A DNA stretch of 64,000 nt from Bacteriovoracia bacterium (GTDB taxonomy: Bacteria; Bdellovibrionota; UBA1018; CAIPTA01). The translations under genes and the position numbers were made by a program. Location of the stretch: assembly GCA_050246755.1 (NCBI GenBank), contig JBFWVL010000003.1, forward strand, positions 192,001-256,000, written 5' to 3'. The notes under the pieces are model-generated. The model did not search any database, had not been told where the DNA came from, and saw nothing but the letters and a program-made list of their open reading frames with translations. Positions 11,180 to 25,669 of this stretch are shown in pieces (within the stretch, counting starts at the first letter, position 1; every line of letters begins with the position of its first letter).

Positions 11180-12279
11180 AATCAATTTCTTTACTGATCC
11201 CGGTGCTGAACGAAGAGGATAACCTTCCTTCGCTTTTTCGCGCGCTCACCGCTTTGCGAAAAAAGAGCGGATCCCTGGATATTCTCTTCATCGATAACGG
11301 CTCCGAGGACGAGTCTGTCTCCTTGATCGAAAAATTCTGCGTCTCACAATCCGGGGTGCGTCTCGTGCACGAAAAAGAGCGCGGCTTCGCCCAGCCCTTG
11401 AACCGCGGCCTCGCCGAGGCTAAGGGCGAATATTTACTCTTCCTCGATGCCGATGCCTTGCCGGACCCGAATTGGGCTGAAGCCATGCGCGAGGCCCTCG
11501 CCGAAAGCGATGTTGCAGTGGGAGAAACGAGTTCGTTTTTGTCGGGACGCGCTACTCCTTATGGAAAGCTTTCGCTCGCGCTTTTCAAGAATCACTCGGC
11601 TTCTGCCGCAAGGGCCGAGGGCCACGCTCTTCCCTGGGGGCCCACCTGCAACCTCGGAGTGCGAAGATCCGTGTTCAATAAAGTGGACCTCTTCTCTCCC
11701 GAAGCGGGGGGCGCCTTCGATATCGATTGGTGCTGGCGCGCCGTGCTTCAGGGAGCCCGGCTAGCCTATATTCCCGGCGCCAAGGTGAAGCACCGCCGCC
11801 GCAACGAGCGCGAGGCTCTCCTCCACCAATTCGATCGCTATGGCCGCGGCGAAGCTTGGCTGCAGCGCACGTATGCCTTCCTCACTGGCGACGAAAAGAT
11901 CGATCCGCTTCAGGCGAGCCTCGAAGGCTACCAACGCCTAAAGCTGCGAGCCCCAAAAGCCAAGGGCGCCGAGGAAGTGGCGGTGGCCTTCGCCTCGGGA
12001 GTGCGCGCGGGCTATAGCGGATTTTTCCGTCCTTGCCCTTTGCCGCGGCCCCAGCCCTCAAAAGCCGTTTACTGGAATAATGCCGCGAAGGGAGTGACCG
12101 TATTTGTGCCGGGCAAGGGAGTTACGGAATTCGCCGGCAAAGGCCTCAAAGCCTGGGAAGCCGTGCGGAGCGGAGCGAGCGATGCCGAGCTCGCCGCGAT
12201 CATGACCAAACTCTTCCGCGTGCCGGCTAAGCATGCCCTCGCCGAAGCACGCGAATTCAGAAAGGCCCTCAGTGTATGA
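11176..12279 (+). CDS. GT2 glycosyltransferase with C-terminal PqqD/RRE-like domain
   Basis: IDNGSED, FLDADA, LPWGPTCNL (paralog of 8226); C-terminal VTVFVPGKG...AWEAVRSGAS...AREFRKAL follows the PqqD pattern. Confidence 0.78.
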   Translation: MKSISLLIPVLNEEDNLPSLFRALTALRKKSGSLDILFIDNGSEDESVSLIEKFCVSQSGVRLVHEKERGFAQPLNRGLAEAKGEYLLFLDADALPDPNWAEAMREALAESDVAVGETSSFLSGRATPYGKLSLALFKNHSASAARAEGHALPWGPTCNLGVRRSVFNKVDLFSPEAGGAFDIDWCWRAVLQGARLAYIPGAKVKHRRRNEREALLHQFDRYGRGEAWLQRTYAFLTGDEKIDPLQASLEGYQRLKLRAPKAKGAEEVAVAFASGVRAGYSGFFRPCPLPRPQPSKAVYWNNAAKGVTVFVPGKGVTEFAGKGLKAWEAVRSGASDAELAAIMTKLFRVPAKHALAEAREFRKALSV

Positions 12280-14477
12280 AGCCCAAGATGCTGGTACTGG
12301 CAAAAACCTTGCCCCTCCACGACCGCGCCAGCGGAGACTACCGTCTCTTTCAGATTCTGGATATTCTTCGTAAAGACCTCGACATCGATTTCCTCTCCAC
12401 GATGCACACCGCTTACCACAAAGCCGAGAAGCGCCTCGACTATATCGTGCGCGATTCCACGTTCAATTTTAACAAAGTAGATTTTCTCGACCAGAAATAC
12501 ATCGACGATCTGAAAGCTATCGGCGTGAATCCCCTGAACCAGGCCAAGCCGGTTCCGTTCACGATCCGACCCACGAACGACTTCGATATCCGCCCTTTCC
12601 TCGCCGAGAAACAGTACGACATCGTGTGGGTGGAATTTTTCTACTTAGCTGATCAGTATATCAGCGATATCCGCCGTTTTCAGCCGGGCGCGAAGGTGAT
12701 CTGCGATTCGGTGGACCTCCATTTCCGCCGCCTCGCCCGCCAATCGCATTACCTCGAGCAGGGCGTGCGCTATCTGGTGAATTACCGCCACGAAAAAAAA
12801 CAAACGAGCTCGGCCGCCCACAAACAAAAAGTGCTCGACCACCGCAACTACGCCGACCACGTGCGCGAGCACGAGCTTTCGGCCTACGCGAAATGCGACG
12901 CCGTGGTGGCCGTGAGCGAGGACGATCGCCAGGAGATGGCGCGGCACATACCGAACCTGCCCCTGCTGTTCATTCCCAACATTCACCGCGAGCAGAAAAT
13001 CCGCGAAGACCTGCAGCAGCCTTGGGAAAAGCGCCAAGGCTGCGTGTTCGTGGGAAATTTCGACCATAATCCGAACGTGTCCGCCGCCATCTACCTGAAG
13101 CACGAGGTGGCTCCCTTTCTCGCCAGCGACGATATCCGTTTCCAGATCGTGGGCTCGAATCCCCCGCGGATCGTGCGCACGCTCGGGCAATTCGGGCCGG
13201 CGAAAGAAAAATTCGAAGTCACGGGTTACGTGCCCGATACCGCCCCCTACCTCGCCGGCGCACGGGTGAGCGTGGCCCCCATTCTCTTCGGCGCGGGTAT
13301 GAACGGCAAAATCGGCGAAGCCATGGCCGCGGGCTTGCCGGTGGTGACCACTTCGCTCGGCGCGCTCGGCATGGGCCTCACCAACGGTGAGAATTGCCTC
13401 GTGGCCGACGATCCCGAAGGCTTCGCGAACGCGATCCGCGCCCTCCACGACGATAAAATCCTCTGGGAAAAAATCCGCGCGAATGCCTCCGTTTTCTTGA
13501 AAAAATCTTTTTCCCGCCAGGAGCTCGATCGCCACGTGCGCGGAGAGCTGAAGCAGCAGATCGCCGAAGCCAAGCGCGCGAAGGCCGCGGGAAAATTATT
13601 ACGGGCCGTAGCGCGCTTGCCCAAGTCCTCCCTCTCGCTTCCGCCCGCGAATTTTCCGGCTCGCCCGAAGAAACCGAAATTCACGGTGATCATTCTGGCC
13701 TTCAACCAATGGCAGTTCACGGACCTCTGCTTACGCAGCTTGGCCGTGGCCGATAAAAAGCACCCTGAACTGAAGGTGGAATACCTGCTCGTAGACAACG
13801 CATCTTCCGATGGCACAGCCGCCAAGGCCGCCAAGGTAAAAAACCTGCGCATTCTGCAAAACCAGGAAAATCTGGGCTTTGCCGGGGGCAATAATAGCGG
13901 AATCCGCGCCGCTAAGGGCGAGCATATCGTGATCTTAAACAACGACACGATCGTTCCCCCCGACTGGCTCGCGCGCCTCAACCAACACCTCGAAACCATT
14001 CCCGACCTCGGCATCCTCGGCCCTTCGGCCAATACCGAATCGGGCCAAGCCATCTTCGGCGTGCGCTATAATTCAATCCGCGATTTTTTTGAGTACAATG
14101 ATCGCCTCGGCCGCGATCAGGCCGGCGCCTGGGAACGCGTGAAAAAGATTTCCGGGCTCTGCATGCTGCTTCCCCGCGCTACCCTCGATAAAGTGGGCCT
14201 GCTCGATACGGACTTCGGCATCGGCTACTTCGAAGACGACGACCTCTGCCTGCGCGCCGAAGACAAGGGCCTCAAACTGGTATGGGCCAAAGACGTGTAC
14301 GTGCACCACTTCGGCAGCATGAGCTTCGAGGGAAATTCACTGAAGCGGGCAAAGTTCTTGGAAGAAGGAATGGCGCGCTTCGCCTTCAAATGGGGCAAGC
14401 GTGGCCTAGAGCATATCGCCAAGGCCCATAAAGAAACGTTGCTGCGTACCCGTAAACCGAAGACGCTCGCGTTCTAG
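12276..14477 (+). CDS. Bifunctional GT4 + GT2 glycosyltransferase
   Basis: GT4 part FVGNFDHNPN, GAGMNGKIGEAMAAGLPVVTT; GT2 part VDNASSDG, NLGFAGGNN, LNNDT, YFEDDDLC. Confidence 0.88.
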   Translation: MKPKMLVLAKTLPLHDRASGDYRLFQILDILRKDLDIDFLSTMHTAYHKAEKRLDYIVRDSTFNFNKVDFLDQKYIDDLKAIGVNPLNQAKPVPFTIRPTNDFDIRPFLAEKQYDIVWVEFFYLADQYISDIRRFQPGAKVICDSVDLHFRRLARQSHYLEQGVRYLVNYRHEKKQTSSAAHKQKVLDHRNYADHVREHELSAYAKCDAVVAVSEDDRQEMARHIPNLPLLFIPNIHREQKIREDLQQPWEKRQGCVFVGNFDHNPNVSAAIYLKHEVAPFLASDDIRFQIVGSNPPRIVRTLGQFGPAKEKFEVTGYVPDTAPYLAGARVSVAPILFGAGMNGKIGEAMAAGLPVVTTSLGALGMGLTNGENCLVADDPEGFANAIRALHDDKILWEKIRANASVFLKKSFSRQELDRHVRGELKQQIAEAKRAKAAGKLLRAVARLPKSSLSLPPANFPARPKKPKFTVIILAFNQWQFTDLCLRSLAVADKKHPELKVEYLLVDNASSDGTAAKAAKVKNLRILQNQENLGFAGGNNSGIRAAKGEHIVILNNDTIVPPDWLARLNQHLETIPDLGILGPSANTESGQAIFGVRYNSIRDFFEYNDRLGRDQAGAWERVKKISGLCMLLPRATLDKVGLLDTDFGIGYFEDDDLCLRAEDKGLKLVWAKDVYVHHFGSMSFEGNSLKRAKFLEEGMARFAFKWGKRGLEHIAKAHKETLLRTRKPKTLAF

Positions 14478-14986
14478 GGAACGCGCTTGAACTTGCCGTT
14501 AATAAAATTGTAAGTGCGATCGCTAACCTTATCGCTGAATTCACCGCGTTCCGTAATGCGAGTCGTCACGCGTCCACGGCGGTCCATGCGAACGGCGCCT
14601 ACGGAATCCACCGGTAGGTAGTCGGTGTCCGCAGATTTTCCCACGATCATCGGCACGAACTTCTTTTCCTTCGCGCTATACTGATAAATATAGAGACCGC
14701 CCGAGATTGGCGAAAACATCACGCGCACCGCGAAGTCCTCGGAACCGTCTGCGTTGAAATCCTGGATCGCGATCGCGGCCTGGTGGCCTTCGTAATCGAA
14801 AGGCACGAAGTCCTCCTCGATTCTCTGATTGTTCCCCGACGGTAAACGCACGCTGAGCACATATTGCCCCTGCGACTCGCGCATGTTCACCGAGGCTTTT
14901 CCGTTCTCGCCCAAGTTGAGTTCCTCGGCCTGAACGGGGGTGGTCACAAATAGTAGGGCGGCGATCAGCCAAAGCTTTAGCGACAT
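14474..14986 (-). CDS. Secreted protein with DxNxDGxxD motif (XAC2610-like; possible hydrolase inhibitor)
   Basis: Signal peptide; IQDFNADGSEDFAV...LYIYQYSAKEKKF; overlaps the upstream hydrolase gene by 10 nt. Confidence 0.6.
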   Translation of the reverse strand: MSLKLWLIAALLFVTTPVQAEELNLGENGKASVNMRESQGQYVLSVRLPSGNNQRIEEDFVPFDYEGHQAAIAIQDFNADGSEDFAVRVMFSPISGGLYIYQYSAKEKKFVPMIVGKSADTDYLPVDSVGAVRMDRRGRVTTRITERGEFSDKVSDRTYNFINGKFKRVP

Positions 14987-17706
14987 AATTTCATGTTCTC
15001 CATTTTCTGTAATCCGTTAGAAACAACCATATTGCGAACCTTGGCGCGATAGTCGGGCTCCGGGCAATACTTTTGCAGGCCGTTCACCACGTCGCTCCAG
15101 TTCGCCGGAGCGGGCCTGGCTTCACGGATAGCCGACTTAACTAGCGGGTAGTAGTTACGGTTGGGATTGAGAATATTGGCGGCGTACGCATAAACAGAAT
15201 CCTGGGAATCCTTAAACGCCAGGAAGTATCCGCCGCCGGCGTCACGCTCGCGCGGACGATCGCAGGTGCCAATCACCAGCTTTTCCTGCCCGCGGATAGT
15301 TAGGCGGAATGCCTGGGTAGTGCTCGGGCTCCAACAGGAGTGCCCTAATGCATTTTTTGTGGTCATAAATAGATCGGACTTACCCCAGTGCGATTCTAGG
15401 GCCGCCTGCGCGATAATCACGGACGCGGGCAAACCGGTGGCCTCCTGTACTTCAAGGGCGTAGGGAGTCATATAGTCGATGAAGGCGCGCTTCGTCTGTT
15501 CGATCGATTTGAAATTACGGAAGTTCGGCTTCGGGCGACTACGGGTGTCTTCCACGCAACCGCTTTCGCGGCGGGGAATCGGCGCCACTTTCGGTACCGG
15601 GGGCAAACGGCGCTCGAGGATCTCAGCTTCGGCCCGAGGGCGTCCGCGCGGCGCCCGTACCGGTATCTCTTCTTCTTCGTCCTCGTCTTCCAGCGCCACC
15701 GCTTCTTTTATGGTGCGGGGAAGATTTTTCAGCACTGCCTGCCCCTGGTGATCCACCCCGGTGATGCCGCAATTCTTCAGCGAGTTCAGATCCACTTGGG
15801 TTCCGTTCGCGATAGCGTCGAGACCGATCTTCACATCAGCGAAGCAAGCTTCGGATTCACAATACTGAATATTATTTCTCTGCGACCAGGGCATGAAAAT
15901 CCAGCGCACTTCTCCGTCGGCCAGAATTTTCGTGGCCACGCCTTCTTCCGTCTCGTATTGGTTCAGCACGGGATAAAAAGCGCCTTCGTTGCTCTGGAAT
16001 GCGATATTATCCTTATTGTCTTTTTCGAAATCCGGCGTGGTACGCACTCGATACCCGGTGGTATTGATGCGCACGTATTTCGGGATCCGCTTCATCTCGA
16101 GGTAAGTATCGATATCCACCGGCAAGTGCTCCTGCACGGGGGCATCATCGTTCTCTATGATCGGCTCAAACTTCGCGGCGTCTTTGGCGTGAAAGCTTTC
16201 ACCGTAACGGGTTTGGTCTTTCGGCACCACCGACATGCCGGCGGCGGCGGGTTCCACGATGCGGGCGGGAGCCACGGGCGCGGGCACTACGGGGCTCGGC
16301 GCGGTTTCAGGCGGAAACTCGTCGGCGGAAGGGTACATGGCTCCCTCTCCTTCGATGCGGGGAATATTTTCCAGGTTCTGCGCGCTGCCTACTCCCGAAG
16401 GAATAATTTCTTCCACTTCCGCCGGGGGAACAGTAGGTTCTTCGGCGGGATACATCGCGCCTTCGCCTTCGATGCGTGAAATTACCTTTAATTTTGGCGC
16501 GGTGCCTACGGGGGCCGGCACTATTTCCTCAATCTCTGGAGAAGCAGTAAAGGCCTCGGGCGCAACGGCATCTCTCGCCGTTTCGCTGATGGGAGGAAGA
16601 ATTGGAGCATGTTCACTCACTGCGGGAGCTTGCGCCGATACCTTATTATCCGCACCGATTTCGGGAGACCAAGGCTCCACTTCCTCTACAGGAGCAGGCC
16701 TACTAACTACGGCCGAGGCCCCTGGCTTCGCCGGAATCACGGCTTGCGGGCGCTTGCCCTTATCACCTTTGTTATAGTCGGTATCAAAGTCATCTCCGGG
16801 AGAGGGCGGAACGATGCCCACTACGCGCTGGCCTTTGTCGCCCTTACCGGTGTCTTTATCATTAGGAACGATCACGGGAACCGGCTTACGGCTAGAACCC
16901 GAGCTGGGCGGAATTACCGCCCGGGGGCGTTTTCCTTTGTCGCCCTTACCGGAATCGAAATCATCGCGGGGAGCGGGAGGCACAACCACTACTACGCGCT
17001 TGCCCTTATCGCCCTTGCCGGAATTAGTTTCGGAATCATCTTTCGGCGCGGGAGGCACAACTACCACCACGCGCTTGCCCTTATCGCCCTTGCCGGAATT
17101 AGTTTCGGAATCATTTTTCGGCGCGGGAGGCACAACCACTACTACGCGCTTGCCCTTATCGCCTTTACCCGAGCTAATCTCGGAATCATCTTTGGGCGCC
17201 GGGGGAACTACCACCACCACGCGTTTACCCTTATCTCCCTTTTCGCTCACGCGCGGGACGGGCGGCGGCAGGATTGTGGTCACCGTTTCTTTTTTTCCGT
17301 CGTCTTCTTCATCGTCAAAAAATTCCTCTTCGGCCGGCACGGGAGGCAAAATCGCTTTTACGCGCGAATTTTTCTTGGCCGAATCCACGGTGCGCACCGG
17401 GGCCTTCATCAAAATAAATTTTACAGCCTTTTTCTTCTCCGCTTTTTTCTCCGTCTTCTTCTTCGCAAGAGGCTTCACGGTCGCGGGCAGGGGCATTTTC
17501 TGCTTGGAAATTTTAACCGCCGTATTTTTCTTCGTAATCGGCTTCACGGGTTCGGCATGGCCCTCGCCATTGGCGGGTGCGTTCACTTCTCCCTCGATCT
17601 CATTGCCGAAATCGTCGGTAAGATTCGTAACGGGTGCCGCGAACGCCGGAGCCGTCCAAAAACTCAGGAGCAGAAATATTGCGACGCTGTTCTTAACCAC
17701 AAACAC
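14977..17706 (-). CDS. Secreted repeat-rich protein with C-terminal GH73 glucosaminidase (FlgJ-like) domain
   Basis: Signal peptide; Pro/Lys-rich repeats; SH3b-like segment; FIDYMTPYA...LPASVIIAQAALESHWGKS...NALG...YCPEPDY. Confidence 0.8.
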   Translation of the reverse strand: MFVVKNSVAIFLLLSFWTAPAFAAPVTNLTDDFGNEIEGEVNAPANGEGHAEPVKPITKKNTAVKISKQKMPLPATVKPLAKKKTEKKAEKKKAVKFILMKAPVRTVDSAKKNSRVKAILPPVPAEEEFFDDEEDDGKKETVTTILPPPVPRVSEKGDKGKRVVVVVPPAPKDDSEISSGKGDKGKRVVVVVPPAPKNDSETNSGKGDKGKRVVVVVPPAPKDDSETNSGKGDKGKRVVVVVPPAPRDDFDSGKGDKGKRPRAVIPPSSGSSRKPVPVIVPNDKDTGKGDKGQRVVGIVPPSPGDDFDTDYNKGDKGKRPQAVIPAKPGASAVVSRPAPVEEVEPWSPEIGADNKVSAQAPAVSEHAPILPPISETARDAVAPEAFTASPEIEEIVPAPVGTAPKLKVISRIEGEGAMYPAEEPTVPPAEVEEIIPSGVGSAQNLENIPRIEGEGAMYPSADEFPPETAPSPVVPAPVAPARIVEPAAAGMSVVPKDQTRYGESFHAKDAAKFEPIIENDDAPVQEHLPVDIDTYLEMKRIPKYVRINTTGYRVRTTPDFEKDNKDNIAFQSNEGAFYPVLNQYETEEGVATKILADGEVRWIFMPWSQRNNIQYCESEACFADVKIGLDAIANGTQVDLNSLKNCGITGVDHQGQAVLKNLPRTIKEAVALEDEDEEEEIPVRAPRGRPRAEAEILERRLPPVPKVAPIPRRESGCVEDTRSRPKPNFRNFKSIEQTKRAFIDYMTPYALEVQEATGLPASVIIAQAALESHWGKSDLFMTTKNALGHSCWSPSTTQAFRLTIRGQEKLVIGTCDRPRERDAGGGYFLAFKDSQDSVYAYAANILNPNRNYYPLVKSAIREARPAPANWSDVVNGLQKYCPEPDYRAKVRNMVVSNGLQKMENMKLCR
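16320..16540 (-). repeat. Two copies of an EEI(V/I)P...RIEGEGAMYP unit in the GH73 gene
   Basis: Visible in the translation; boundaries approximate. Confidence 0.7.
16745..17241 (-). repeat. Intragenic 75-nt (25-aa) tandem repeat; seven KGDKG motifs in total
   Basis: KGDKGKRVVVVVPPAP(K/R) x4 with a 75-nt period (e.g. 17001 vs 17076), plus three degenerate copies. Confidence 0.9.
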
Positions 17707-17858: not shown

Positions 17859-18527
17859 TTAGGACTTTGGAAAGAGCGTGGGAACTTCGAGGCCGAGCGC
17901 GCCGAGCCCTACACGGTAAGCCTGGGAAGCTCGCCAGAGCAGCAAGCTGCGCCGGCCGCCGAGGAAGCGGTCTTTAAGCTCGTGAGTAAACATAAAAGCT
18001 TGGGCACCCAGAAGATAATAGCGGAAGCGGGATTCTTCCAAGGACCATTTCCGGAAAGAAATATTACGGCCGCGTGGGTCTTTGGCTCCCTCTACCCTTC
18101 CCAAAATTCTTTCGGCCGTCACGAGGGAGGCGGAAAAAGTATTGTCGCCCGCTTCGAGAAAAAGATTTCCGGTACGGCCGATTAGGCGGTGCACCCGAAG
18201 CTGCGCTTCTCCGCTGCGCGCACGCGCCTCCACCACGATGAGATCGCCGGGCGACAAAAATTCAGGATTTATTTTTCGGTAGCGGATGCGGTAGCCGGGC
18301 CGTAAGATCGGCCACATCGAGACGCCCTCCACCACGGCCTCTTCAGTTTTGCGTGAAGCCTGGGGGGCAAGAGACTGGACAAAAAGTTTGGTAGCGAGCC
18401 TTTCGTGCCGCGAATGTTTTCGCGCCGATTGCTGGCTAGAAGTAAGCGTGGACCCGTTTGATCTTTTCGTATTTCGTGAGGGTCGGCTTTTGGTAGGTTT
18501 TTTTGGACTTCCCAGTTTTTTTGACAT
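17859..18527 (-). CDS. S24/S26-family peptidase (Ser-His type); start uncertain (ATG 18527 or GTG 18335/18332)
   Basis: VEGVSMWPILRPG, GDLIVV, VHRLIG, AGDN, ILGRV. Confidence 0.8.
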   Translation of the reverse strand: MSKKLGSPKKPTKSRPSRNTKRSNGSTLTSSQQSARKHSRHERLATKLFVQSLAPQASRKTEEAVVEGVSMWPILRPGYRIRYRKINPEFLSPGDLIVVEARARSGEAQLRVHRLIGRTGNLFLEAGDNTFSASLVTAERILGRVEGAKDPRGRNISFRKWSLEESRFRYYLLGAQAFMFTHELKDRFLGGRRSLLLWRASQAYRVGLGALGLEVPTLFPKS

Positions 18528-18540
18528 TTTCCTTCGTCAT
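18436..18540 (-). CDS. Putative RiPP precursor peptide, 34 aa (lasso-type YxxPxL leader), absent from the ORF track
   Basis: Hand translation MTKENVKKTGKSKKTYQKPTLTKYEKIKRVHAYF*; AAGGA RBS 8 nt upstream, overlapping the PqqD stop codon. Confidence 0.78.
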   Translation of the reverse strand: MTKENVKKTGKSKKTYQKPTLTKYEKIKRVHAYF

Positions 18541-18550
18541 ACGACGGTCC

Positions 18551-18844
18551 TTATTCTTGAAACTCTAAGAGCCGCTCAGCCAGAAGCTGACCGCAAAACT
18601 CCAAAGTGTCTTTTTTCGCTTGTTCCAACTCGCAATCATACTCTAAGCGCAGGGATTCAATCAAATCCTTCACGGTTTTGGGCTTTTCCGCCACCACCGA
18701 CCAGAGATGCGTTCCCACGCGATCCAGCGCAAAATAATCTCCACTGCCAAAATGCAGCAGCACGGCTTCCCCGTCCACCGACTTCCAGTGAACATTTTTC
18801 GATTTGCGCACCTGGGTGGCTTCGCTGATCTTCGAAAACTTCAT
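18551..18844 (-). CDS. Stand-alone PqqD-family / RiPP recognition element protein
   Basis: WKSVDGEAVLLHFGSGDYFALDRVGTHLW...LRLEYDCELEQAKKDTLEFCGQLLAERLL. Confidence 0.9.
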   Translation of the reverse strand: MKFSKISEATQVRKSKNVHWKSVDGEAVLLHFGSGDYFALDRVGTHLWSVVAEKPKTVKDLIESLRLEYDCELEQAKKDTLEFCGQLLAERLLEFQE

Positions 18845-18876
18845 GTCCAATTTCTGCCTGATTCAGAGCGGCTGTG

Positions 18877-20928
18877 TCAAGGGGACACCGCCTCGCGAAG
18901 GTCTAAGGGAGAAATAGAATGCTCTGAATAAAATTCAGCCTCCTTGGTTTGCTGCATAGCGGCTTTGTCGCCTTTGGCCCGAAGCAGCTCGGCGTATTCC
19001 TGACGAAGGGCCGGGTCGTCACTATGCACCCTCACCAACTGGCCAAGCGCGTCAGCAGTGCGCAGAATATCTTTACGGGCCCGAAAAATCTGCGCGAGCT
19101 TACGGTAGAGGGAAGGAGGAAAGCGGCGGTAGCCACGGTATTGAAGGGCCGCTAGTTCGTACTGCAATAAGGCCGCGGGCTCCCGATTTTCCAGCATATA
19201 GAGGTCCCCTAGCTCTTCGCGTTTGGTCCAATAAGGAAAGTATTTGCCGGGAAACTGCGCAAATACGTTTTCGTAGTCGGCGATCGCAGCCCGGCGGTTC
19301 CCCGACTTGGCGTAGTACTGGGCGCGCAGTAGGTAAAAAGTATTATTGGTGAGGTTAGGCTCCCGCGTGCGCGCAGAAAGTTTCGCATCCTGGAATTTTT
19401 CCGCGGCGGCCTCCCAGGCTACGAGCCAGTGATCGTCGGGTAAAGAATTCAGGCCGGCGGTGAGAAGAATCACGGCGTTCCAAAAATCATCTTTCCCGCC
19501 AAGCAGCGCCGCTCCCCGCTTCCAAATACTGCCGCCTTCCCGCTGTAGGCGCTGGTGAAGCACGCTGGCGGCGGACCGTACGGCGATTTCCTGCTCTTCG
19601 AACGTGAGATTTCCGGGCCGGAGGCCTTCGAGGTATTTTAGGAGAATAGGAAGTGCTTCCTCTCCGCCGCGAAACCGCTGCGCGCGTGCGCTCCAAGTAT
19701 TAAAAACGATGCGGAATTTTTTTGGGTATTTCTGGTAGGCGTCTTGCCATAAGGATTCCGTGCTTTGCCAAACCGCGATGCGAGGAGCCGTAGCGAAGAC
19801 CGCTACTGCGAGCAGGGCCGAAAACGGGACCGCCCAAAAAATCTTTCCTGTTTGGGAGGCAAGTTTTAGGAAGAGCGCCGTGAACAACCAGGCAAACGCG
19901 GGCAGAGCCAGATAGAGATGCCGTTCCGCAAAGGGATCAAGCACGGGAAAAATAGAATTGGTGATGGAGAGCGCACCGAAAATCCAGAGCACGCAGAAAA
20001 AAACGGGGGCGCGGCTTTTCCGGAGAGCGTAAAAGAAAACAGGCAACGTTGCCCAAACCGCCAGACCGCAAAGAACATTCGGGTCTTTCCACGAGTCAGG
20101 AAAGGAAATCTGGTGATCGATGGCCTGGAGATCGGGGCGGAAAAATAGGCGGAGGATATTCGGCCACTGCGCCACTGCGATCGGCCAGTAGTCGCGAATC
20201 GAAAAAATATCTAAGTCGCCCCCGATTTGATAGAAGCCGCTGCTCGCCCCCACGAGGTAAGGCCATTTCAGTATCGCCCCCGCCGCGCCCGCCGCCAACA
20301 AAGGCGCGCAGTACGGTAAAAGCTCCACCCAGCGGCGGCCTAAATAGGCATGGTACAGCAGTAATAGCGGAAGCAGGGCCAGGGCGCTCTCTTTGGTTAA
20401 AAAGGCGGCGGCGGCGGCGATCATGAATCCCAGCCAAGACCAGAATCCGGGTCGTTCCCTCCCGTAACACCAGAGCGCACAGAGCAGAAAAAGCAATACC
20501 ATCAGCGAGGAACGGCCAGATAAATAGACCACCGAGTCCACCGCGAGCGGATGCAATAAAAATATTCCGCCCGCCAATACCCCGCCCAGCGCAGCGCCCT
20601 CCCGGCGCCGGAAGAGGCGGAAGAAAAACAAGCCCACGAGCAGCGCATTGAGTGCGTGAAAAAGCAGGCTCGGCGCCCGCAGCGCGGAGAGTGAAAGCCC
20701 GGCCGCGGCATAGCTCAGCGCGAAGCTCAGGCTCGTGAGCGGGCGGTTCCGCGAATGCTCGCTCTCGATGAAGATGCGCGGGTGAGCAAGGTAGCGGATC
20801 GCGCGATTATCGATCACGTTGGAGGCATCGTCGAATTGATAGGGAAAAGGCAAGGAAGGCAAATAGAGAAAAAGGTAAACCCCTACCAGCCCCGCGATCA
20901 CCGTAAATAGAAAAAATTTAAAGCGCAT
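18877..20928 (-). CDS. TMTC-like GT-C membrane glycosyltransferase with C-terminal TPRs
   Basis: FDDASNVIDN, RPLTSLSFAL, HPLAVDSVVYLSGRSSL, KES, AERHLYL, WQSTESLW, then helical repeats. Confidence 0.75.
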   Translation of the reverse strand: MRFKFFLFTVIAGLVGVYLFLYLPSLPFPYQFDDASNVIDNRAIRYLAHPRIFIESEHSRNRPLTSLSFALSYAAAGLSLSALRAPSLLFHALNALLVGLFFFRLFRRREGAALGGVLAGGIFLLHPLAVDSVVYLSGRSSLMVLLFLLCALWCYGRERPGFWSWLGFMIAAAAAFLTKESALALLPLLLLYHAYLGRRWVELLPYCAPLLAAGAAGAILKWPYLVGASSGFYQIGGDLDIFSIRDYWPIAVAQWPNILRLFFRPDLQAIDHQISFPDSWKDPNVLCGLAVWATLPVFFYALRKSRAPVFFCVLWIFGALSITNSIFPVLDPFAERHLYLALPAFAWLFTALFLKLASQTGKIFWAVPFSALLAVAVFATAPRIAVWQSTESLWQDAYQKYPKKFRIVFNTWSARAQRFRGGEEALPILLKYLEGLRPGNLTFEEQEIAVRSAASVLHQRLQREGGSIWKRGAALLGGKDDFWNAVILLTAGLNSLPDDHWLVAWEAAAEKFQDAKLSARTREPNLTNNTFYLLRAQYYAKSGNRRAAIADYENVFAQFPGKYFPYWTKREELGDLYMLENREPAALLQYELAALQYRGYRRFPPSLYRKLAQIFRARKDILRTADALGQLVRVHSDDPALRQEYAELLRAKGDKAAMQQTKEAEFYSEHSISPLDLREAVSP

Positions 20929-21955
20929 GTTCCAGGAGTTTTTTGCGTCGCAGCCCCCAGCTCAGCAGGGCCCGTGCGAAACCGAATCCATACGCCAGGT
21001 GGATCCAGGGAAAAAGTCCGGCGGCAAGCCAACCCGCACGGTCGCGCGTGGCGAACGAGGTGGTGAACAAGGCCACCAACAGGGCGTAGGAGACGAGCGG
21101 CAAAAAGGCCAAGGGAGACGCGGAAAAATAAGGGAGGCAGAGGAGATAAAACAGGAAAAAAGTGGGCAAAAAGTAGAGAGGACGCAGCGTATGGGGCAGC
21201 AGCAATAAATTTTGTGCCCTGCCCGCTCCGTATTTCGCGGCCTGCTCCCAAGTTCCCGCCCACGTTTCGCGGCGGCGATGGTAAACGGCGAGCCGCGGCG
21301 AATGCCAAAGCTTCGTGCCCGGATGGTCGAGCTGCTGGAGCAGCACATTCTCTTCGTTCGAGATCAAGTGCGTGGCGAATCCGCCCTGCGCGAAAAACGC
21401 CTCTCGCCTTATGGCGAGATTGCAGAGAATTAGCGCATGCTCGCCGCTTGGTCCCTCGGCCAGCTGGCGGTAGCGCCCGCGCATCGAAGCAGCTCCAAGG
21501 TAGGAAGCCAGCACGAAACCGGCCGCCCTCTCCAGTGCACCACTGTCGGGAGGAGTGAGATTGGCGCCGCCGGCGGCCAGTAGCGCGGGATCGCGAAAAA
21601 GCGCAGAGGCCGCTTTGCCTAAATCTTGAAAGCATTCGATATCGTCATCGAGAAAAAGCAAAAGTTCCCCGCGAGCCTGGGCTACGCCCAAATTCCTTGC
21701 TGCGCCGGGTCGCCGGCCACTGGCCTCTAGCACCAACAAAGGGAAGTCTGCGTTAGCCAATAACTCTGCGCTAAATCGCAGCACCTCGGCGGAAGCCCCG
21801 TTTAGCACCAGCACGAGCTCCCAATCCTCCAGCGTGGAATGAGCGCGAAAACTCGAGATGGCCCTGGCCAATAAATCGGCACGGCGAAACCCCAGGATCA
21901 CCACGCTCAACGCCGGCTGAGCACTATTCCATTTCGGGTTCGTTTGGGTTTGCAA
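20918..21955 (-). CDS. GT2 glycosyltransferase with C-terminal membrane segments
   Basis: GAARNLG, FLDDD, ILCNLAIRR, NEENVL; TTG 21955 is preceded by AAGGAG at 7 nt. Confidence 0.82.
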   Translation of the reverse strand: MQTQTNPKWNSAQPALSVVILGFRRADLLARAISSFRAHSTLEDWELVLVLNGASAEVLRFSAELLANADFPLLVLEASGRRPGAARNLGVAQARGELLLFLDDDIECFQDLGKAASALFRDPALLAAGGANLTPPDSGALERAAGFVLASYLGAASMRGRYRQLAEGPSGEHALILCNLAIRREAFFAQGGFATHLISNEENVLLQQLDHPGTKLWHSPRLAVYHRRRETWAGTWEQAAKYGAGRAQNLLLLPHTLRPLYFLPTFFLFYLLCLPYFSASPLAFLPLVSYALLVALFTTSFATRDRAGWLAAGLFPWIHLAYGFGFARALLSWGLRRKKLLEHAL

Positions 21956-22040
21956 CGCAAAACTCCTTATCTTTTTGCCGGCGGGGAGAAAGAAGGCCCT
22001 TTCGCTTGAATCCGCCTCGGCCTTGCCATAGATTTCCCCC

Positions 22041-23084
22041 ATGGTGGCCCTGGAAACCCGCAAAGGCAAACATTTTTGCTTGCACGGCATCGCCGTGGAA
22101 CTGCGCGGAAATCGCGTTGACCGCGTTGCGGGCGATTTTGATTTTTATACGGGCCGCGCCATCACGGGAAAAGAAAAATACCGCGTGATGCTCGAGCTCG
22201 GCCCGGCGAGCGCGGTGAAGTTGCCCGCGGTGGCCGCCGAGAGAGTTTTTTCCGATTGCGTGCTCTATCGGGAAGGCGAAAAGCTTTTTTACGAATATTC
22301 CGGAGGCGCCGTTCTCGAAGTGGAAAGAGGAAAAACTTTTTCCCGCGGCCGCCTGAGTTCCGACAATACGGATCTCGCCGACGAAATCGCTTACCTTTAT
22401 CTACAATCGGAAATTGGCCGCTTCCTCGATGCCCAGGGCTTGCACCGCGTGCACGCGCTCGGGATCGGCCTTCCCAGCGGAAAAGCCGCGCTGGTATTGC
22501 TGCCGAGCGGGGGCGGGAAAAGCACGCTGGCGCTTGAGCTTCTCCAGCAAGAAGGCTGCGTACTGCTTTCCGACGACAGCCCGCTCGTGGACCGGGTCGG
22601 CCGGGTATACCCCTATTTGCTGCGGCTCTCTTTTCGCCCCGACGCCAAGCTGCCCGCTGCCTGGAAAGAAAATTCTCTCCCCTTCGAGCGGCGTAAACAC
22701 GGGCCCAAGATCCTCGTTTCGCCCGCCTCGCTCTCCTCGGCCGCCCTTCCGCGGCCCGAAGACCGCTTTGCCCCAGGATTTTTGGTGATCGGTAGCCGGC
22801 ATGGCGCGCTCGCGGAGCCGCGTCTCGTAAAGAGAGCCAAGTGGCAAAGCGCGCTTCCCCTTTTTCGCGATCTAGTGGTGGGCCTGGGCGTGCCGCAGGT
22901 GGCGGAGCTTCTGCTCACCAAGGGAATTCTTAGCCTTCCCGGCCTCGCTCCCACCGGCGTATCCCGGCTGGCGGCCGCCTCGGCTTTTCTCGCTCGCGCC
23001 CACACATTCGAGCTCGAGCTTTCCCGGGATCCCGTGCGCAATGCCCGTTTCTTAATTGAAACGCTCGAGGCCAACGCGCGATGA
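22041..23084 (+). CDS. HPr kinase-related P-loop kinase
   Basis: VHALGI, PSGGGKST and LLSDD motifs in HprK-like order. Confidence 0.75.
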   Translation: MVALETRKGKHFCLHGIAVELRGNRVDRVAGDFDFYTGRAITGKEKYRVMLELGPASAVKLPAVAAERVFSDCVLYREGEKLFYEYSGGAVLEVERGKTFSRGRLSSDNTDLADEIAYLYLQSEIGRFLDAQGLHRVHALGIGLPSGKAALVLLPSGGGKSTLALELLQQEGCVLLSDDSPLVDRVGRVYPYLLRLSFRPDAKLPAAWKENSLPFERRKHGPKILVSPASLSSAALPRPEDRFAPGFLVIGSRHGALAEPRLVKRAKWQSALPLFRDLVVGLGVPQVAELLLTKGILSLPGLAPTGVSRLAAASAFLARAHTFELELSRDPVRNARFLIETLEANAR

Positions 23085-23863
23085 AACGCTTCTGCGCGAT
23101 TTTCAAGCCCCGCTCCCGTGAGTTGATGCGCACGCTGATGCGGATGGAGCTCTCGCTCATGGAGCAGGGCACACTCTTTGGCTTCGTGCTTTCCTTCCTG
23201 AACAATATCCTGATGCTGCTCGTATTCCACGCGCTCTTCGTGACCCGCTTCATCTCGGAAGTGCCCAATACCTGGGTGTACCTCCTGCTCGGCATCGTGC
23301 AGTGGAATCTCTACATGAATATCTCGCTCGCGGGCTTCGCCTGCTTCGTGTACCGCCAGAAACTAGTGATGGGGTATTCTTTTCCGCGGGAAAAATTAAT
23401 CCTCGCCCGTACCGCCGCGATCTTCGTGCCCTATATCATCGAGCTCACCCTGATCCTCGGCGTAGCTCGCTACTTTCACCTGCCGTTCACCTGGAAATAT
23501 GCCTGGCTTCCGCTCTTCCTCCTCAATCAGTTCCTCTTTTGCGCCGCGATTTGCGCCGTGTTCGCGTTCGTTGGGGTGCTCCACAAAAACATCATTCCCT
23601 TCTGGAACCTAATGTTCCGCCTGCTGTCGTTCGCCACCCCCATTTTTTATATTCCCTTCCATTTCAAAACCTGGTGGGTAGAAGGCCTGTATAATTTGAA
23701 CCCCTTTACGATCTTCATGCTTTGGGTGCGCGATATCGCCGGCGCGAACGGCTTCGCTTTCGAATCCAAGCCCCTGAATATAACCCTCGCCTCGGCCGCG
23801 ATGTTCCTGGGGGCCTATTTGCTTTTCCGGATTATGGAAGCGCGCGTAGGTGACAACCTATGA
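23081..23863 (+). CDS. ABC-2 permease, Wzm/TagG-like
   Basis: About six TM segments; LSFATPIFY and LNPF; coupled to a Wzt-like ATPase. Confidence 0.8.
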   Translation: MKRFCAIFKPRSRELMRTLMRMELSLMEQGTLFGFVLSFLNNILMLLVFHALFVTRFISEVPNTWVYLLLGIVQWNLYMNISLAGFACFVYRQKLVMGYSFPREKLILARTAAIFVPYIIELTLILGVARYFHLPFTWKYAWLPLFLLNQFLFCAAICAVFAFVGVLHKNIIPFWNLMFRLLSFATPIFYIPFHFKTWWVEGLYNLNPFTIFMLWVRDIAGANGFAFESKPLNITLASAAMFLGAYLLFRIMEARVGDNL

Positions 23864-24549
23864 GCGAGCTGATCGTCACGCGCGGCCTCACCAAGGCATT
23901 CCCCCGCCACAAGGGCGCGCGCACCGTGGTGAAGAAAATCGCCCACCTCACTTGGATGCGCGAGTTCGTGCCCGTTTTCGAGGGCGTTAACTTCCGCCTG
24001 AAAGCCGGTGAAAGCGTGGCTTTGCTTGGTCCGAATGGCTGCGGCAAGAGCACTTTTCTCCGCTGCTTGGCGGGCGTAATTGCTCCCACCGCCGGCGAAA
24101 TATTCCATCGGGGAAAGACCGTGGCCTTGCTCTCCCATGGATTCGGCAACTACGACGAGCTCGCCGTTTGGCAGAGCATCGTATTGGCCCAGCAGCTTTT
24201 CGGCGCTTCGCTGGCCGAGGCTAAAAAGAATATCGAGCAAGTGGGGGCATTCGCCGGAATCGAAGACCGGCTAAAAGACCCTTCTTCTCAGCTATCCGAG
24301 GGAATGCGCGCAAAGATTTCCCTTTCGGCGCTCGCCTTCGCGGAATTCGACGTGGCTCTCCTGGACGAAAGCCTGAACCACGTAGACGCCGATTTCCGCC
24401 AGCAATACCTCGAGCTGACACGGAAGTGGATAAGGGAGGGCCGCAGTCTCATCCTTACCTCCCACGATGAGCAGCTCCCCTTGCGTTTCGCTAATCGCTT
24501 GCTGAGGATCGAGAACAAAAAACTGACGCCGGCCAGCCGAACGAGTTAA
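23860..24549 (+). CDS. ABC ATP-binding protein, Wzt/TagH-like, with no C-terminal carbohydrate-binding domain
   Basis: GPNGCGKST, LSEGMRAK, LLDE...VDADF, TSHD. Confidence 0.82.
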   Translation: MSELIVTRGLTKAFPRHKGARTVVKKIAHLTWMREFVPVFEGVNFRLKAGESVALLGPNGCGKSTFLRCLAGVIAPTAGEIFHRGKTVALLSHGFGNYDELAVWQSIVLAQQLFGASLAEAKKNIEQVGAFAGIEDRLKDPSSQLSEGMRAKISLSALAFAEFDVALLDESLNHVDADFRQQYLELTRKWIREGRSLILTSHDEQLPLRFANRLLRIENKKLTPASRTS

Positions 24550-24559
24550 AATAGGGCCC

Positions 24560-25669
24560 ATGCCCAAGAAGATCAAAGTCATCACCAGCGATATGCACCT
24601 CTCCGCGGGGCGCTTCGTGGATGGCGTGCAGAACCCCCACGAAGATTTTTTCTTCGACCGCGAGTTCTGCGAGTTCATGGAATATTTTTCCAGCGGCAAA
24701 TACGGCGACGGCTGCGAAGTGGAGCTCATCCTCAATGGCGACGTGCTCGACTTCCTCAACGTGCAAACGCAGGGTGAGTTCGCCGACGTGGTTACCTCCG
24801 AAATCGCGGTCGAGAAATTGCGCGCTATCCTCGCCGGCCATCCGGAAGTGGTGGCCACCATGCAGCGTTTCGTGCGCAAGCCGGGCAAAAGAATTCTCTA
24901 CAACGTAGGCAACCACGACCTGGATTTATTTTTTCCGGCCGTGCGCGAAGAGTTTTGCCGGGCGATCGGCGGCGAACACTGGAAGCCCGAGCAAGTGTGG
25001 GTGAACGTGGAGACCGAGCTCCTCGCCTATCCCGAAGGAATCGAGGTACACCACGGGAATCAGTTCGAGGCCGTGCATACCACCAACTACCAGCAGCCCT
25101 TCGTGACCGAAAACCTGCCCGAGCCCATCCTCTACCTGCCCTGGGGCTCTGTATACGTGATCAAGATCATCAATCGCCTGAAGTGGGAGCGCGACTATAT
25201 CGACAAAGTACGCCCCGCTAAGCTCTTCATGGCGATCAGCTTGATCTTCGATCCCATCTTCACGCTGAAATTCTTCATTCTTTCGGCGTTCTACTTTTTG
25301 CACACGCGCTTCATCTATAACCCGCGCCGCCGCGCTACGATCACCAATACCCTCGAGATCATGAAGGAAGAAATCACGCCCTTCTACGGCCTCGAGGACG
25401 ACGCCCGCGCCATTCTCGACCAGAGGCCGAATGTGCACACCGTGATCTTCGGCCATACCCACGGCCCCATGCAACGCTTCTACCGCGACGGAAAAACGTA
25501 TATCAATACCGGTACGTGGACGCGGATGATCAACCTGGATTTCCGTAACCTCGGGCAATCCGCCAAGCTTACCTTCGCTTATATCGAGTACGACGATGAG
25601 GGTAAGCCGCGCGCTACCTTAGAGGAATGGCTCGGCCTTCATCACCCGCACCGCCCGTTTAATTTTTGA
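24560..25669 (+). CDS. Calcineurin-like metallophosphoesterase
   Basis: SDMH, GDVLD, GNHD, HHGN, FGHTH. Confidence 0.85.
   Translation: MPKKIKVITSDMHLSAGRFVDGVQNPHEDFFFDREFCEFMEYFSSGKYGDGCEVELILNGDVLDFLNVQTQGEFADVVTSEIAVEKLRAILAGHPEVVATMQRFVRKPGKRILYNVGNHDLDLFFPAVREEFCRAIGGEHWKPEQVWVNVETELLAYPEGIEVHHGNQFEAVHTTNYQQPFVTENLPEPILYLPWGSVYVIKIINRLKWERDYIDKVRPAKLFMAISLIFDPIFTLKFFILSAFYFLHTRFIYNPRRRATITNTLEIMKEEITPFYGLEDDARAILDQRPNVHTVIFGHTHGPMQRFYRDGKTYINTGTWTRMINLDFRNLGQSAKLTFAYIEYDDEGKPRATLEEWLGLHHPHRPFNF

Follow-up and report, generated by a model that had tools for sequence, protein, structure and literature searches.

A stretch of 64,000 nucleotides (hereafter the window) from an uncultured Bdellovibrionota bacterium encodes a peptide of 34 residues, and we consider it probable, with moderate confidence, that this peptide is the ribosomal precursor of a modification pathway of the linear polyphosphorylated peptide (LPP) type. 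LPP pathways were first described in 2026 from lppA-K-B-S-D-N clusters of Paenibacillus alginolyticus, a member of the Bacillota (Popov et al., Nat Commun 2026, PMC13381572). [quoted passage not shown] In the window, LPP-like machinery would serve a substrate that is cut down to a leader and two or three residues and is without the defining Ser, and the candidate modification site is narrowed to one tyrosine.

The peptide gene occupies positions 18436–18540 on the minus strand (34 codons plus stop, ATG to TAG; translation MTKENVKKTGKSKKTYQKPTLTKYEKIKRVHAYF). The initial annotation had pointed to a hidden gene of precursor type, whose leader has the lasso-type YxxPxL motif, and to an AAGGA ribosome-binding site right after the PqqD stop, and both points hold. 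The PqqD reading frame (18850–18551, minus strand) ends with a TAA at 18553–18551, and the AAGGA Shine-Dalgarno-like site at 18552–18548 on the same strand overlaps this stop codon and stands 7 nt 5′ of the peptide ATG; purine-rich sites are found at the equivalent position before the peptide ATG in the other loci compared. Sequence comparison confirms that the 34-aa ORF is a real gene and more than a chance frame, and it is flanked by the PqqD gene on one side and the gene of an S26-type peptidase on the other in 10/10 related loci, namely 5/5 orthologous genome loci and 5/5 metagenome loci that were found via the neighbouring peptidase. In some metagenomes, gene callers have labelled it as a “hypothetical protein”. 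Searches of the peptide against Pfam and NCBIfam returned only sub-threshold leader-like matches (DUF5972, E 0.016; lasso_cyano, E 0.087). When the whole genome was scanned with a loose regular expression for Lys-rich YxKPx precursors, 331 matches came up, most of them random, and apart from the window's own peptide none of the matches listed was convincing.

The peptide is built from a variable Lys-rich N-terminus, the predicted RRE-binding motif YQKPTL and an invariant TKYEKIKRVHAYF end. Its conservation beside homologous pqqD genes, proposed earlier as a check, is borne out by these ten loci. In all, 21 distinct sequences were collected, which keep the short length (33–40 aa) and all end in AYF, and a profile search of 1.84 billion representatives returned three clusters of 33–38 aa with the same ending. 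Over the last 57 nt of ten of these genes there are 19 variable sites, of which 15 fall on codon position 3, three on position 1 and one on position 2; one amino acid is kept throughout at 17 of the last 19 codons, and the variation is thus almost entirely synonymous. In the overlapping +1 frame, amino acid changes occur at 14 of 18 positions over the same stretch. These comparisons show strong protein-level selection on the peptide gene. It could be supposed that the frame is untranslated and owes its conservation to the overlapping peptidase start or to an RNA element, as the peptidase frame is open over the entire peptide gene and has its nested ATG at +13 or +16 in all ten loci. However, the variation pattern favours the peptide frame and a Shine-Dalgarno-like site precedes its ATG, and the non-coding reading was rejected as very improbable.

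The possibility had also been raised that the TAG is a nonsense mutation or a sequencing error, in which case the peptide would be a truncated remnant of a long-core precursor as found in radical-SAM cassettes. Distant relatives of the RRE and the peptidase (~30% identity), in other Bdellovibrionota families, do flank 52–70-aa precursors that contain two Cys and end in Ser, as seen in eight loci. Yet all 21 distinct short sequences stop directly after AYF, with TAG or TAA depending on the locus, and independent contigs from other studies carry the identical stop. A contig from another study differs at 20 of 648 nt, with no difference inside 18436–18540 and nine in the 110 nt after it. No radical-SAM gene is present among the 17 ORFs scanned in the window locus. 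This reading was rejected as well, on the common AYF end with either stop codon, and we give it the least credence of all.

The neighbouring gene encodes an S26-type (SipW-like) Ser-His-Asp peptidase, considered as the counterpart of LppS, which in its long form spans 17859–18527 on the minus strand; an alternative short form would begin at GTG 18335. The long form begins at an ATG in the +1 frame, 13 nt into the peptide gene, and therefore both proteins would be made from one mRNA stretch. This out-of-frame nesting of a substrate gene with the gene for its expected protease is conserved. S70, H113 and D128 are invariant among ten peptidase sequences. The predicted fold matches that of S24/S26 enzymes, with lambda cI, LexA, SipA, SpsB and SEC11 among the matches (E 2e-3 to 3e-2, probability ~1), and sequence-model matches are weak (4nv4, E 0.77; Peptidase_S24, E 0.036 in 1/5). 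A profile scan of the genome contigs with the peptidase alignment recovered four MAGs, all of them found before, and no additional ones. In Paenibacillus, LppS depends on LppB and its catalytic residues are S29, H68 and D93, as reported in PMC13381572. The initial annotation left the LPP pathway, the S26-type peptidase and the peptidase start inside the peptide gene unmentioned. The Leu codons of the peptide gene are CTC or CTT in 9/9 cases, against 49% in cluster genes, and the Leu codons avoided are those that would introduce a stop into the peptidase frame; this bias may reflect stop avoidance or, equally, a general preference for C-ending codons in the peptide gene, and it is not counted as evidence.

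The PqqD-family protein (18551–18850, minus strand; PF05402, E 5.8e-15; lasso_PqqD_Bac at 55 bits against a cut-off of 80) is a predicted RRE, or peptide chaperone, and the counterpart of LppB. Modelling of the peptide–RRE complex, another check suggested at the outset, passes its controls with an ipSAE of 0.78 (runs 0.79, 0.78 and 0.77) against 0.01 for the best control, a mark that is reached by 58/80 solved complexes and 2/110 mismatched pairs. Contact agreement is at least 88% and the partner pLDDT is 61–63. Peptide residues 13–26 are modelled on RRE residues 36–46 and the helix 69–92, and in the model the YQKPTL stretch docks on the RRE as lasso and LPP leaders do; because lasso and LPP RRE–leader complexes have already been solved, the pass may reflect this likeness.

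It is possible, but in our view unlikely, that the peptide acts solely as a ligand which binds the RRE and assembles or switches on the kinase, the peptidase or glycosyltransferases acting on a glycan or on a downstream-encoded secreted protein, while its last residues yield nothing useful. The entire 19-residue end is invariant, well beyond a recognition motif, which fits a bound ligand as well as a substrate and so speaks against our main reading; the core is without the Ser needed by the known kinase, as described for LPP (PMC13381572). In the same genome a second PqqD gene has paralogues of the GT4+GT2 gene and of the NTase-like gene as neighbours, and no second peptide gene was found near it on contig C5. 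On the other hand, all characterised relatives (lasso and LPP) use such a leader on a substrate, the adjacent peptidase and a V-x-A pattern in which −2 is free to vary speak for cleavage, and related families retain a short tail or a long core past the same motif.

The pattern at the C-terminus is R-V-x-A-Y-F, in which Val30 and Ala32 are fixed and residue 31 is H, R or Q. Since fixed Val (−3) and Ala (−1) around a variable −2 fit a signal-peptidase site, the peptidase most likely cuts after Ala32, leaving Tyr-Phe; a cut after His31, in the register of LPP with Tyr at −16 and Arg at −3, is less likely and would leave Ala-Tyr-Phe. The earlier proposal that only Y-F follows the cut is thus supported by the fixed Val30 and Ala32 and the adjacent S26-type peptidase, with two residues predicted, or three in the other register. 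Ser is absent from the peptide after residue 12, and hence from the core. Tyr33 carries the sole hydroxyl in residues 27–34, a segment outside the modelled RRE interface, and this makes it, as the initial annotation proposed, the candidate acceptor. Conversely, the basic N-terminal 31–32 residues could be the product and Tyr-Phe or Ala-Tyr-Phe a C-terminal pro-piece removed on maturation. Most of the conserved part does lie before the predicted cut, and the surrounding glycan locus might specify an anionic polymer to which a Lys-rich peptide could bind. We hold this to be improbable nevertheless, as the Lys-rich N-terminus is the variable part of the peptide, residues 13–26 are modelled on the RRE, and the LPP product described in PMC13381572 is the C-terminal fragment of its precursor, with the N-terminal part serving as leader.

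The putative counterpart of LppK is a P-loop kinase of PEPCK/HprK fold (22041–23084, plus strand), divergently transcribed and with a GGGKST P-loop. Family models match it weakly (TIGR04355, E 0.0099; TIGR00679; TIGR04352; hpr-ser, E 0.018), and a PDB-sequence profile search with the kinase alignment gave P-loop-level matches only (E > 0.3). Its structure model (pLDDT 85.6) finds PEPCK by Foldseek (E 6e-8), HprK itself is absent among the 50 matches listed, and the protein would be HprK-like by virtue of its predicted PEPCK/HprK-superfamily fold. On the same strand follows a predicted Wzm/Wzt-like exporter (23081–24549), which consists of an ABC-2 permease (23081–23863) and a Wzt/RfbE-like ATPase (23860–24549). 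A GT2 glycosyltransferase with a hydrophobic C-terminal part is encoded at 20918–22090 on the minus strand (PF00535, E 4.7e-15), with its true start probably downstream of 22090. The RRE, peptide, peptidase, kinase, GT2 and ABC-2 exporter genes are syntenic in 5/5 genomes, and in metagenome contigs within their reach. A PMT_2-like (GT-C) membrane protein (18877–20928, minus strand), which carries TPR repeats at its C-terminus and a conserved loop motif, FDD, shows weak PF13231 and TPR matches; its gene stands upstream of PqqD in 8/9 loci reaching that far and is missing in one (L067). Best conserved among the neighbours, at 71–79% identity, is a 369-aa metallophosphoesterase-like protein (24560–25669, plus strand), whose membership in the system is that of a candidate only.

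Farther away, a 566-aa nucleotidyltransferase-like protein (9479–11179, plus strand) carries a GGGRDELVPGASDLDF motif of the form G-G...D-x-D and is a possible LppN counterpart. It has no Pfam match itself; two of four relatives scanned gave weak NTP_transf_2 matches (E 0.011 and 0.055), and through Atlas the protein can be traced to clusters of NTP_transf_2. N-terminal relatives of this protein are encoded near S26-like genes in genomes G172, G227 and G101. A syntenic pair on the plus strand, a GT2 (11176–12279) and a two-domain GT4+GT2 protein (12276–14477), belongs to the surrounding glycan locus. The glycosyltransferases may serve this glycan locus only, and this, together with the missing GT-C gene in L067, speaks against our main reading.

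According to the LPP-type pathway that we favour, the tail IKRVHAYF would stay free on the RRE and be presented to the Ser-His-Asp peptidase. Modification of the Tyr33 hydroxyl would precede cleavage, first by the HprK/PEPCK-fold kinase and afterwards by the NTase-like and glycosyltransferase proteins. The peptidase would then release Tyr-Phe or, with the cut after His31, Ala-Tyr-Phe, and the ABC-2 exporter would carry out this small product or a glycan assembled on it. If so, a 34-residue peptide and a few genes would provide a simple and direct system for the roles of kinase, nucleotidyltransferase and glycosyltransferase in LPP-type pathways.

The likeness to LPP as described in PMC13381572 extends to a discrete PqqD-type RRE predicted to bind a YxxPx[VL] leader with Ile 11 residues past the Tyr, to the gene of a predicted S26-type (SipW-like) Ser-His-Asp leader peptidase near the RRE gene, its product having an N-terminal helix ahead of the catalytic Ser, and to an HprK-like kinase, a possible nucleotidyltransferase and an exporter, all set in a polysaccharide locus that is rich in glycosyltransferases and has no cyclase. 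There are differences as well. The discussion of PMC13381572 restricts LPP to Bacillota, whereas the window locus is in Bdellovibrionota, and the predicted core has two or three residues against 45 in LppA. The LppA motif is given as YxxPxVLxHQxIxFETxxS (PMC13381572); the window peptide has YQKPTL and the Ile at +11, but neither FET before the cut nor Ser at core position 3. The Paenibacillus kinase phosphorylates core Ser3 and rejects Ser3Thr and Ser3Tyr (PMC13381572), and because the core here is without Ser, the defining LPP chemistry cannot apply. The exporter is an ABC-2 permease with a separate ATPase and not an MsbA-like pump as in LPP, the NTase-like gene is 7 kb away, and the peptide and peptidase genes are nested. 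Curated family models recognise the kinase, the NTase-like protein and the peptidase weakly or not at all, and all the enzymes are too diverged for the curated cut-offs.

The phosphorylated and phosphoglycosylated lasso peptides paeninodin and pseudomycoidin, as reviewed in PMC8498205, share an RRE-bound [Y/W]xxP leader, and an HprK-like kinase and a nucleotidyltransferase that tailor a hydroxyl near the precursor C-terminus. By comparison with that account, the peptide is without an Asp/Glu acceptor and a C-terminal Ser, and its locus is without a cyclase and a B2 cysteine peptidase. None of the 17 ORFs scanned from 9.4 to 28.7 kb contains the domains of a lasso macrolactam cyclase (Asn-synthase-like) or of a B2 peptidase (transglutaminase-type), and Transglut_core3 (PF13471) was not found in the genome, which is 95.7% complete. 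A lasso core would start with Gly, Ala, Ser or Cys and carry Asp or Glu at one of positions 7–9. With a core that is also too short, a lasso peptide was rejected, in agreement with the initial annotation.

Mycofactocin offers another comparison: its precursor MftA ends in Val-Tyr, MftB is the RRE and MftF a GT2. Here too a short peptide goes with an RRE, the C-terminal aromatic end is possibly the sole part used, and MftF is the best curated match of the GT2 at 20918–22090, at 79 bits against a cut-off of 280, with EpsD about equal and both far below cut-off. Radical-SAM MftC, MftD and MftE are lacking in the locus, and the peptide ends in Tyr-Phe. The likeness would be one of logic only, and the analogies with mycofactocin and glycogenin have this generic GT2 match as their sole basis.

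A more specific version of the LPP-type reading, which we regard as less likely than not, is that the RRE leader is a throw-away scaffold, built only so that kinase, NTase-like protein and GT2 can install a phospho-, nucleotidyl- or glycosyl-Tyr in a Tyr-Phe unit. Cleavage by the S26-type peptidase would set this unit free in one of two forms: a small molecule, or a peptide that primes or end-caps a glycopolymer for which the ABC-2 system is the exporter. If true, this would be the first signal-peptidase-type pathway with a dipeptide-derived product, LPP-type machinery would have shifted from serine to tyrosine, and the related proteins in which an RRE-like domain is fused to an FLCP, FLYP or FFY tail would represent sister systems.

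Scm-type loci (SynChlorMet ScmC/D/E/F models) resemble the window's locus in that they encode an HprK-like protein, a leader with Lys-rich sequence and YxKPx, and an RRE and an S26-like peptidase that are both related to those described here; they differ in a radical SAM/SPASM gene that adjoins the precursor in the two loci scanned, L051 and L053. Besides their two Cys and terminal Ser, the long-core precursors have an N-G-[ST] triplet, and their YxKPx lies 14–16 residues ahead of an AVAA-type small-residue run; six of these peptides gave no match in Pfam and NCBIfam. In a third related family, a tail of 3–4 residues (FLCP, FLYP, FFY) follows a small residue 17 positions from the first position of the motif in 10 of 13 members. 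Three precursor styles are in this way connected with a common kind of leader and peptidase: long Cys cores with radical SAM, short tails on a fused RRE-like domain, and the AYF peptide on its own. Comparison of the fused 108–123-aa proteins with the PqqD alignment by hhalign gave a weak match (probability 20%, E 0.0011), and their profile matches the second PqqD gene of the same genome (E 3e-4).

The peptide gene runs from ATG to TAG over 34 codons at 18540-18436 on the minus strand of the window (translation MTKENVKKTGKSKKTYQKPTLTKYEKIKRVHAYF). It is preceded by a PqqD-family ORF (18850-18551; PF05402, E 5.8e-15), whose best curated match is a lasso-type PqqD chaperone at 55 bits, below the cut-off of 80. 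Reading of the window sequence confirmed the initial annotation of a 34-aa ORF right behind the PqqD stop, with an AAGGA that overlaps the TAA of the PqqD ORF and ends 7 nt before the peptide ATG. When the PqqD protein was used as query against 61 related genomes, orthologues (E 1.6e-29 or better) were found in four genomes in addition to that of the window; they belong to its family and represent four of the eight other genomes there. A frame of 33–35 codons follows the PqqD gene in 5/5 orthologous loci, and the ORF is thus conserved beside homologous pqqD genes. A second search, with the neighbouring peptidase rather than the peptide as query, returned the same four MAGs (Bdellovibrionales, Bdellovibrionota, Oligoflexia) from the genome collection and five further contigs from the metagenome collection. 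In each of these contigs the peptide gene immediately precedes that of the peptidase, so that it is present in all ten loci (five genome, five metagenome). Common to the ten peptides is YQKP[T/V][L/I]TKYEKIKRVHAYF; there is no variation in the last 13 residues, whereas the Lys-rich N-terminus differs in sequence and length. The earlier description of a hidden precursor with a lasso-type leader, which is itself not a lasso peptide, is upheld.

The last 57 nt of the ten genes contain 19 variable sites, namely 15 at codon position 3, three at position 1 and one at position 2, and the amino acid is constant at 17 of the 19 codons of the peptide frame; in the overlapping +1 frame of the same stretch it changes at 14 of 18 positions. 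Neighbouring proteins share just 30–79% identity between the genomes with the peptide gene. Searching 1.84 billion representative proteins with a profile built from the ten peptides gave three clusters of 33–38 aa, all with the AYF end (...YQKPTLTKYEKIKRVHAYF, ...YRKPQLTKYEKVQRVRAYF, ...YKKPTLTKYEKIKRVQAYF), and the 90% cluster of the window peptide has eight more members of 34–40 aa that all end identically. Both TAG and TAA occur as stop codon, depending on the locus. A contig obtained in a separate study shows 20 differences over 648 nt, none of them inside the peptide gene and nine in the following 110 nt. The synonymous variation, the AYF-ending clusters, the differing stops and this unchanged contig together indicate that the frame is a translated, strongly constrained gene. 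A nonsense mutation or sequencing error at the stop is ruled out by the conserved AYF end, the use of both TAG and TAA, and the contig from the other study.

Gene order is identical in 5/5 genomes. One strand carries a metallophosphoesterase-like gene, an ABC ATPase, an ABC-2 permease and a 347-aa P-loop protein; the divergent strand carries a GT2 with hydrophobic C-terminal part, a 683-aa PMT_2-like membrane protein with TPR repeats, PqqD, the peptide and the peptidase-like gene; farther out lie a secreted protein, a GT4+GT2 protein, a GT2 and a 566-aa protein. The metagenome contigs agree as far as each reaches, and one (L067) is without the GT-C/TPR gene. A family search with the peptidase-like protein gave no significant match. 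In its ten sequences a Ser (GVSMWP), a His (VHRL) and an Asp (GDN) never vary, and the top fold matches of its structure model (pLDDT 74.6) are only S24/S26 proteins: lambda repressor C-domain, LexA, SipA, SpsB and human SEC11 (E 2e-3 to 3e-2, probability about 1). In the 347-aa protein a GGGKST P-loop is accompanied by weak HprK-family matches, and its model (pLDDT 85.6) matches PEP carboxykinases (E 6e-8), enzymes whose fold superfamily also includes the catalytic domain of HprK. The 566-aa protein (9479-11179, plus strand) contains a G-G...D-x-D nucleotidyltransferase motif; a Pfam scan of it was without match, two of four scanned relatives have weak NTP_transf_2 matches, and its Atlas leads point to NTP_transf_2 clusters. 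Its Atlas model also aligns at low TM (0.35), as a lead only, with GlnD uridylyltransferases, enzymes that modify a tyrosine hydroxyl. The 909-aa secreted protein (14977-17706, minus strand) has at least four near-identical GKGDKGKRVVVVVPPAP... repeats and a C-terminal glucosaminidase domain (PF01832), and its middle part is kept downstream of the peptidase gene in six other loci.

The closest known system, absent from the initial annotation, is the linear polyphosphorylated peptide (LPP) pathway, whose clusters were defined in Bacillota by a 2026 paper (PMC13381572). According to its main text, the LppA precursor carries the motif YxxPxVLxHQxIxFETxxS, LppB is a discrete RRE, and the HprK-like kinase LppK polyphosphorylates core Ser3, Ser3Thr and Ser3Tyr not being phosphorylated (PMC13381572). 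LppS, a SipW-like peptidase (S29, H68, D93), is described as cleaving after Thr-1 solely with the leader presented by LppB, and its N-terminal helix contacts the RRE-leader sheet (PMC13381572). The clusters sit inside capsule loci and also hold an MsbA-like pump and an NTP transferase of unknown role; final product and function are given as unknown (PMC13381572). The window locus shares the logic and most parts of this pathway, its 566-aa protein being a possible counterpart of the NTP transferase. It probably works like LPP, yet is not a plain member: a precursor motif with the Ser and a pump of the MsbA kind were looked for in the locus and not found. What makes the locus notable is its minimal core without Ser, the phylum it comes from and the nesting of two genes. 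The main text of that paper has 0 occurrences of "Bdellovibrio". Among the 15 matches listed in a full-text literature search, "linear polyphosphorylated" and "polyphosphorylated peptide" occur in PMC13381572 alone, and none of the Bdellovibrionota RiPP and PqqD papers listed bears on the system by title and start of abstract.

The peptidase frame is +1 relative to the peptide and is open from a nested ATG to the catalytic Ser in all ten loci (the window, L011-L014, L065-L069). This ATG, which consists of the invariant Asn5 codon AAT and the G of the following codon, lies 13 nt after the peptide ATG (16 nt in L014), and the resulting overlap in the window is 18436-18527 on the minus strand. 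Between the peptide stop and the catalytic core, a helix with the sequence (R/K)LAxELxSRSL is conserved in eight of ten loci (residues 34-53 of the model); it recalls the N-terminal helix of LppS as described (PMC13381572). No other ATG, GTG or TTG is found upstream of this helix in the window, L012, L065 and L068, and L065 has no in-frame start at all apart from the nested ATG. Because these four loci offer no alternative upstream of the helix, the peptidase most likely starts within the peptide gene, and the substrate gene would then be nested in the protease gene. Database gene calls for the peptidase differ, at either 152 aa, which would be without the catalytic Ser, or 220–245 aa.

The complex of RRE (5-row alignment) and peptide (10-row alignment), a modelling step proposed in the initial annotation, was predicted with an ipSAE of 0.78 (runs 0.79, 0.78, 0.77) against 0.01 for the best control, a mark reached by 58/80 solved complexes and 2/110 mismatched pairs. 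Contact agreement is at least 88% and partner pLDDT 61–63. Since similar lasso and LPP complexes have already been solved, this predicted pass shows likeness to them and is not proof of binding. In the model, peptide residues 13-26 (KKTYQKPTLTKYEK) run along RRE residues 36-46 and helix 69-92, and residues 27-34 (IKRVHAYF) are outside the confident interface. Signal-peptidase cut sites follow a -3/-1 rule, which fits R-V-x-A/Y-F (slash at the cut). Val30 and Ala32 are fixed across the family and position 31 takes H, R or Q, as would be expected of a -2 side chain pointing away. A predicted cut after Ala32, with Tyr16 at -17 and Tyr-Phe left over, is probable, and the two-residue remainder proposed earlier is thus favoured. 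The count of LppA, with Phe at -3, Thr at -1 and the motif Tyr at -16 (PMC13381572), would place the cut after His31 and Arg at -3, leaving Ala-Tyr-Phe; we regard this as rather doubtful. The core has two to three residues without Ser whether the cut is after Ala32, as preferred, or after His31. Tyr33 is the sole hydroxyl of the tail outside the modelled interface, and we infer that it could be phosphorylated, nucleotidylated or glycosylated.

Distant relatives of the peptidase (about 30% identity, catalytic half) occur in other Bdellovibrionota families, and at an E-value of 0.01 or below its profile matches 21 of the 401 genomes sampled, one of them the window's own. Two kinds of neighbour were seen. 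The first are peptides of 52–70 aa near S26-like genes at eight loci (L049, L050, L051, L053, L056, L057, L064, L016), with a Lys-rich start, YxKPx (a looser Y-C-S-P-K form in L057), an AVAA-like run, and a core with two Cys, N-G-[S/T] and a terminal Ser. The two loci scanned for families (L051, L053) have an HprK-like protein, PqqD and a radical SAM/SPASM enzyme beside the peptide, and six of these peptides gave no Pfam or NCBIfam match. Long-core homologues, earlier named as a sign of a truncated gene, therefore do exist, but they fall in a separate, radical-SAM branch, and the branch of the window peptide has the short form throughout. The second kind are fused proteins of 108–132 aa (179 aa from the first start at one locus) at 13 places in 12 genomes (L070-L081, L090; G151, G140, G227, G134, G200, G182, G101, G218, G206, G215, G128, G172). 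Their N-terminal part is PqqD-like (hhalign E 0.0011, probability 20%), and their profile matches the second PqqD of the window's own genome (E 3e-4). A YxRPxF-kind motif follows, its first position being Tyr in some members, with a small residue seventeen positions later. A tail of three to four residues is present in 10/13, the ends being FLCP (6), FLYP (3), FFY (1) and a longer tail (3). Nearby peptidase relatives show CLGPSQWP...CHRVL...KGD, two being fused to a methyltransferase. These proteins look like an RRE joined to its own precursor. A very short aromatic tail that contains a single Tyr or Cys, follows a lasso-type motif and is encoded beside an S26-like peptidase is thus a recurring design of the phylum, which supports reading AYF as a working end and not an accident.

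The second PqqD gene (G000:C5:116644-120889; L015 9644-13889) has 33–34% identity, and no peptide gene was found in its region. It adjoins paralogues of the window's GT4+GT2 protein (52%) and NTase-like protein (40%), which suggests that both enzymes work with an RRE. A two-helix stretch (...SLLLWRASQAYRxGLGALGLxVP...) makes up the last ~50 residues of the peptidase and recurs at the C-terminus of a 2OG-Fe(II) oxygenase and of a radical SAM/SPASM protein. These two are encoded by adjacent genes at another place in the window's own genome (G000:C1:959033-962619; L091), with a second radical-SAM gene, a GT2 and an epimerase after them. The shared stretch may be a module that docks or anchors other enzymes to the same system, and similar ends are also found in long ORFs of two further genomes (G006, G007).
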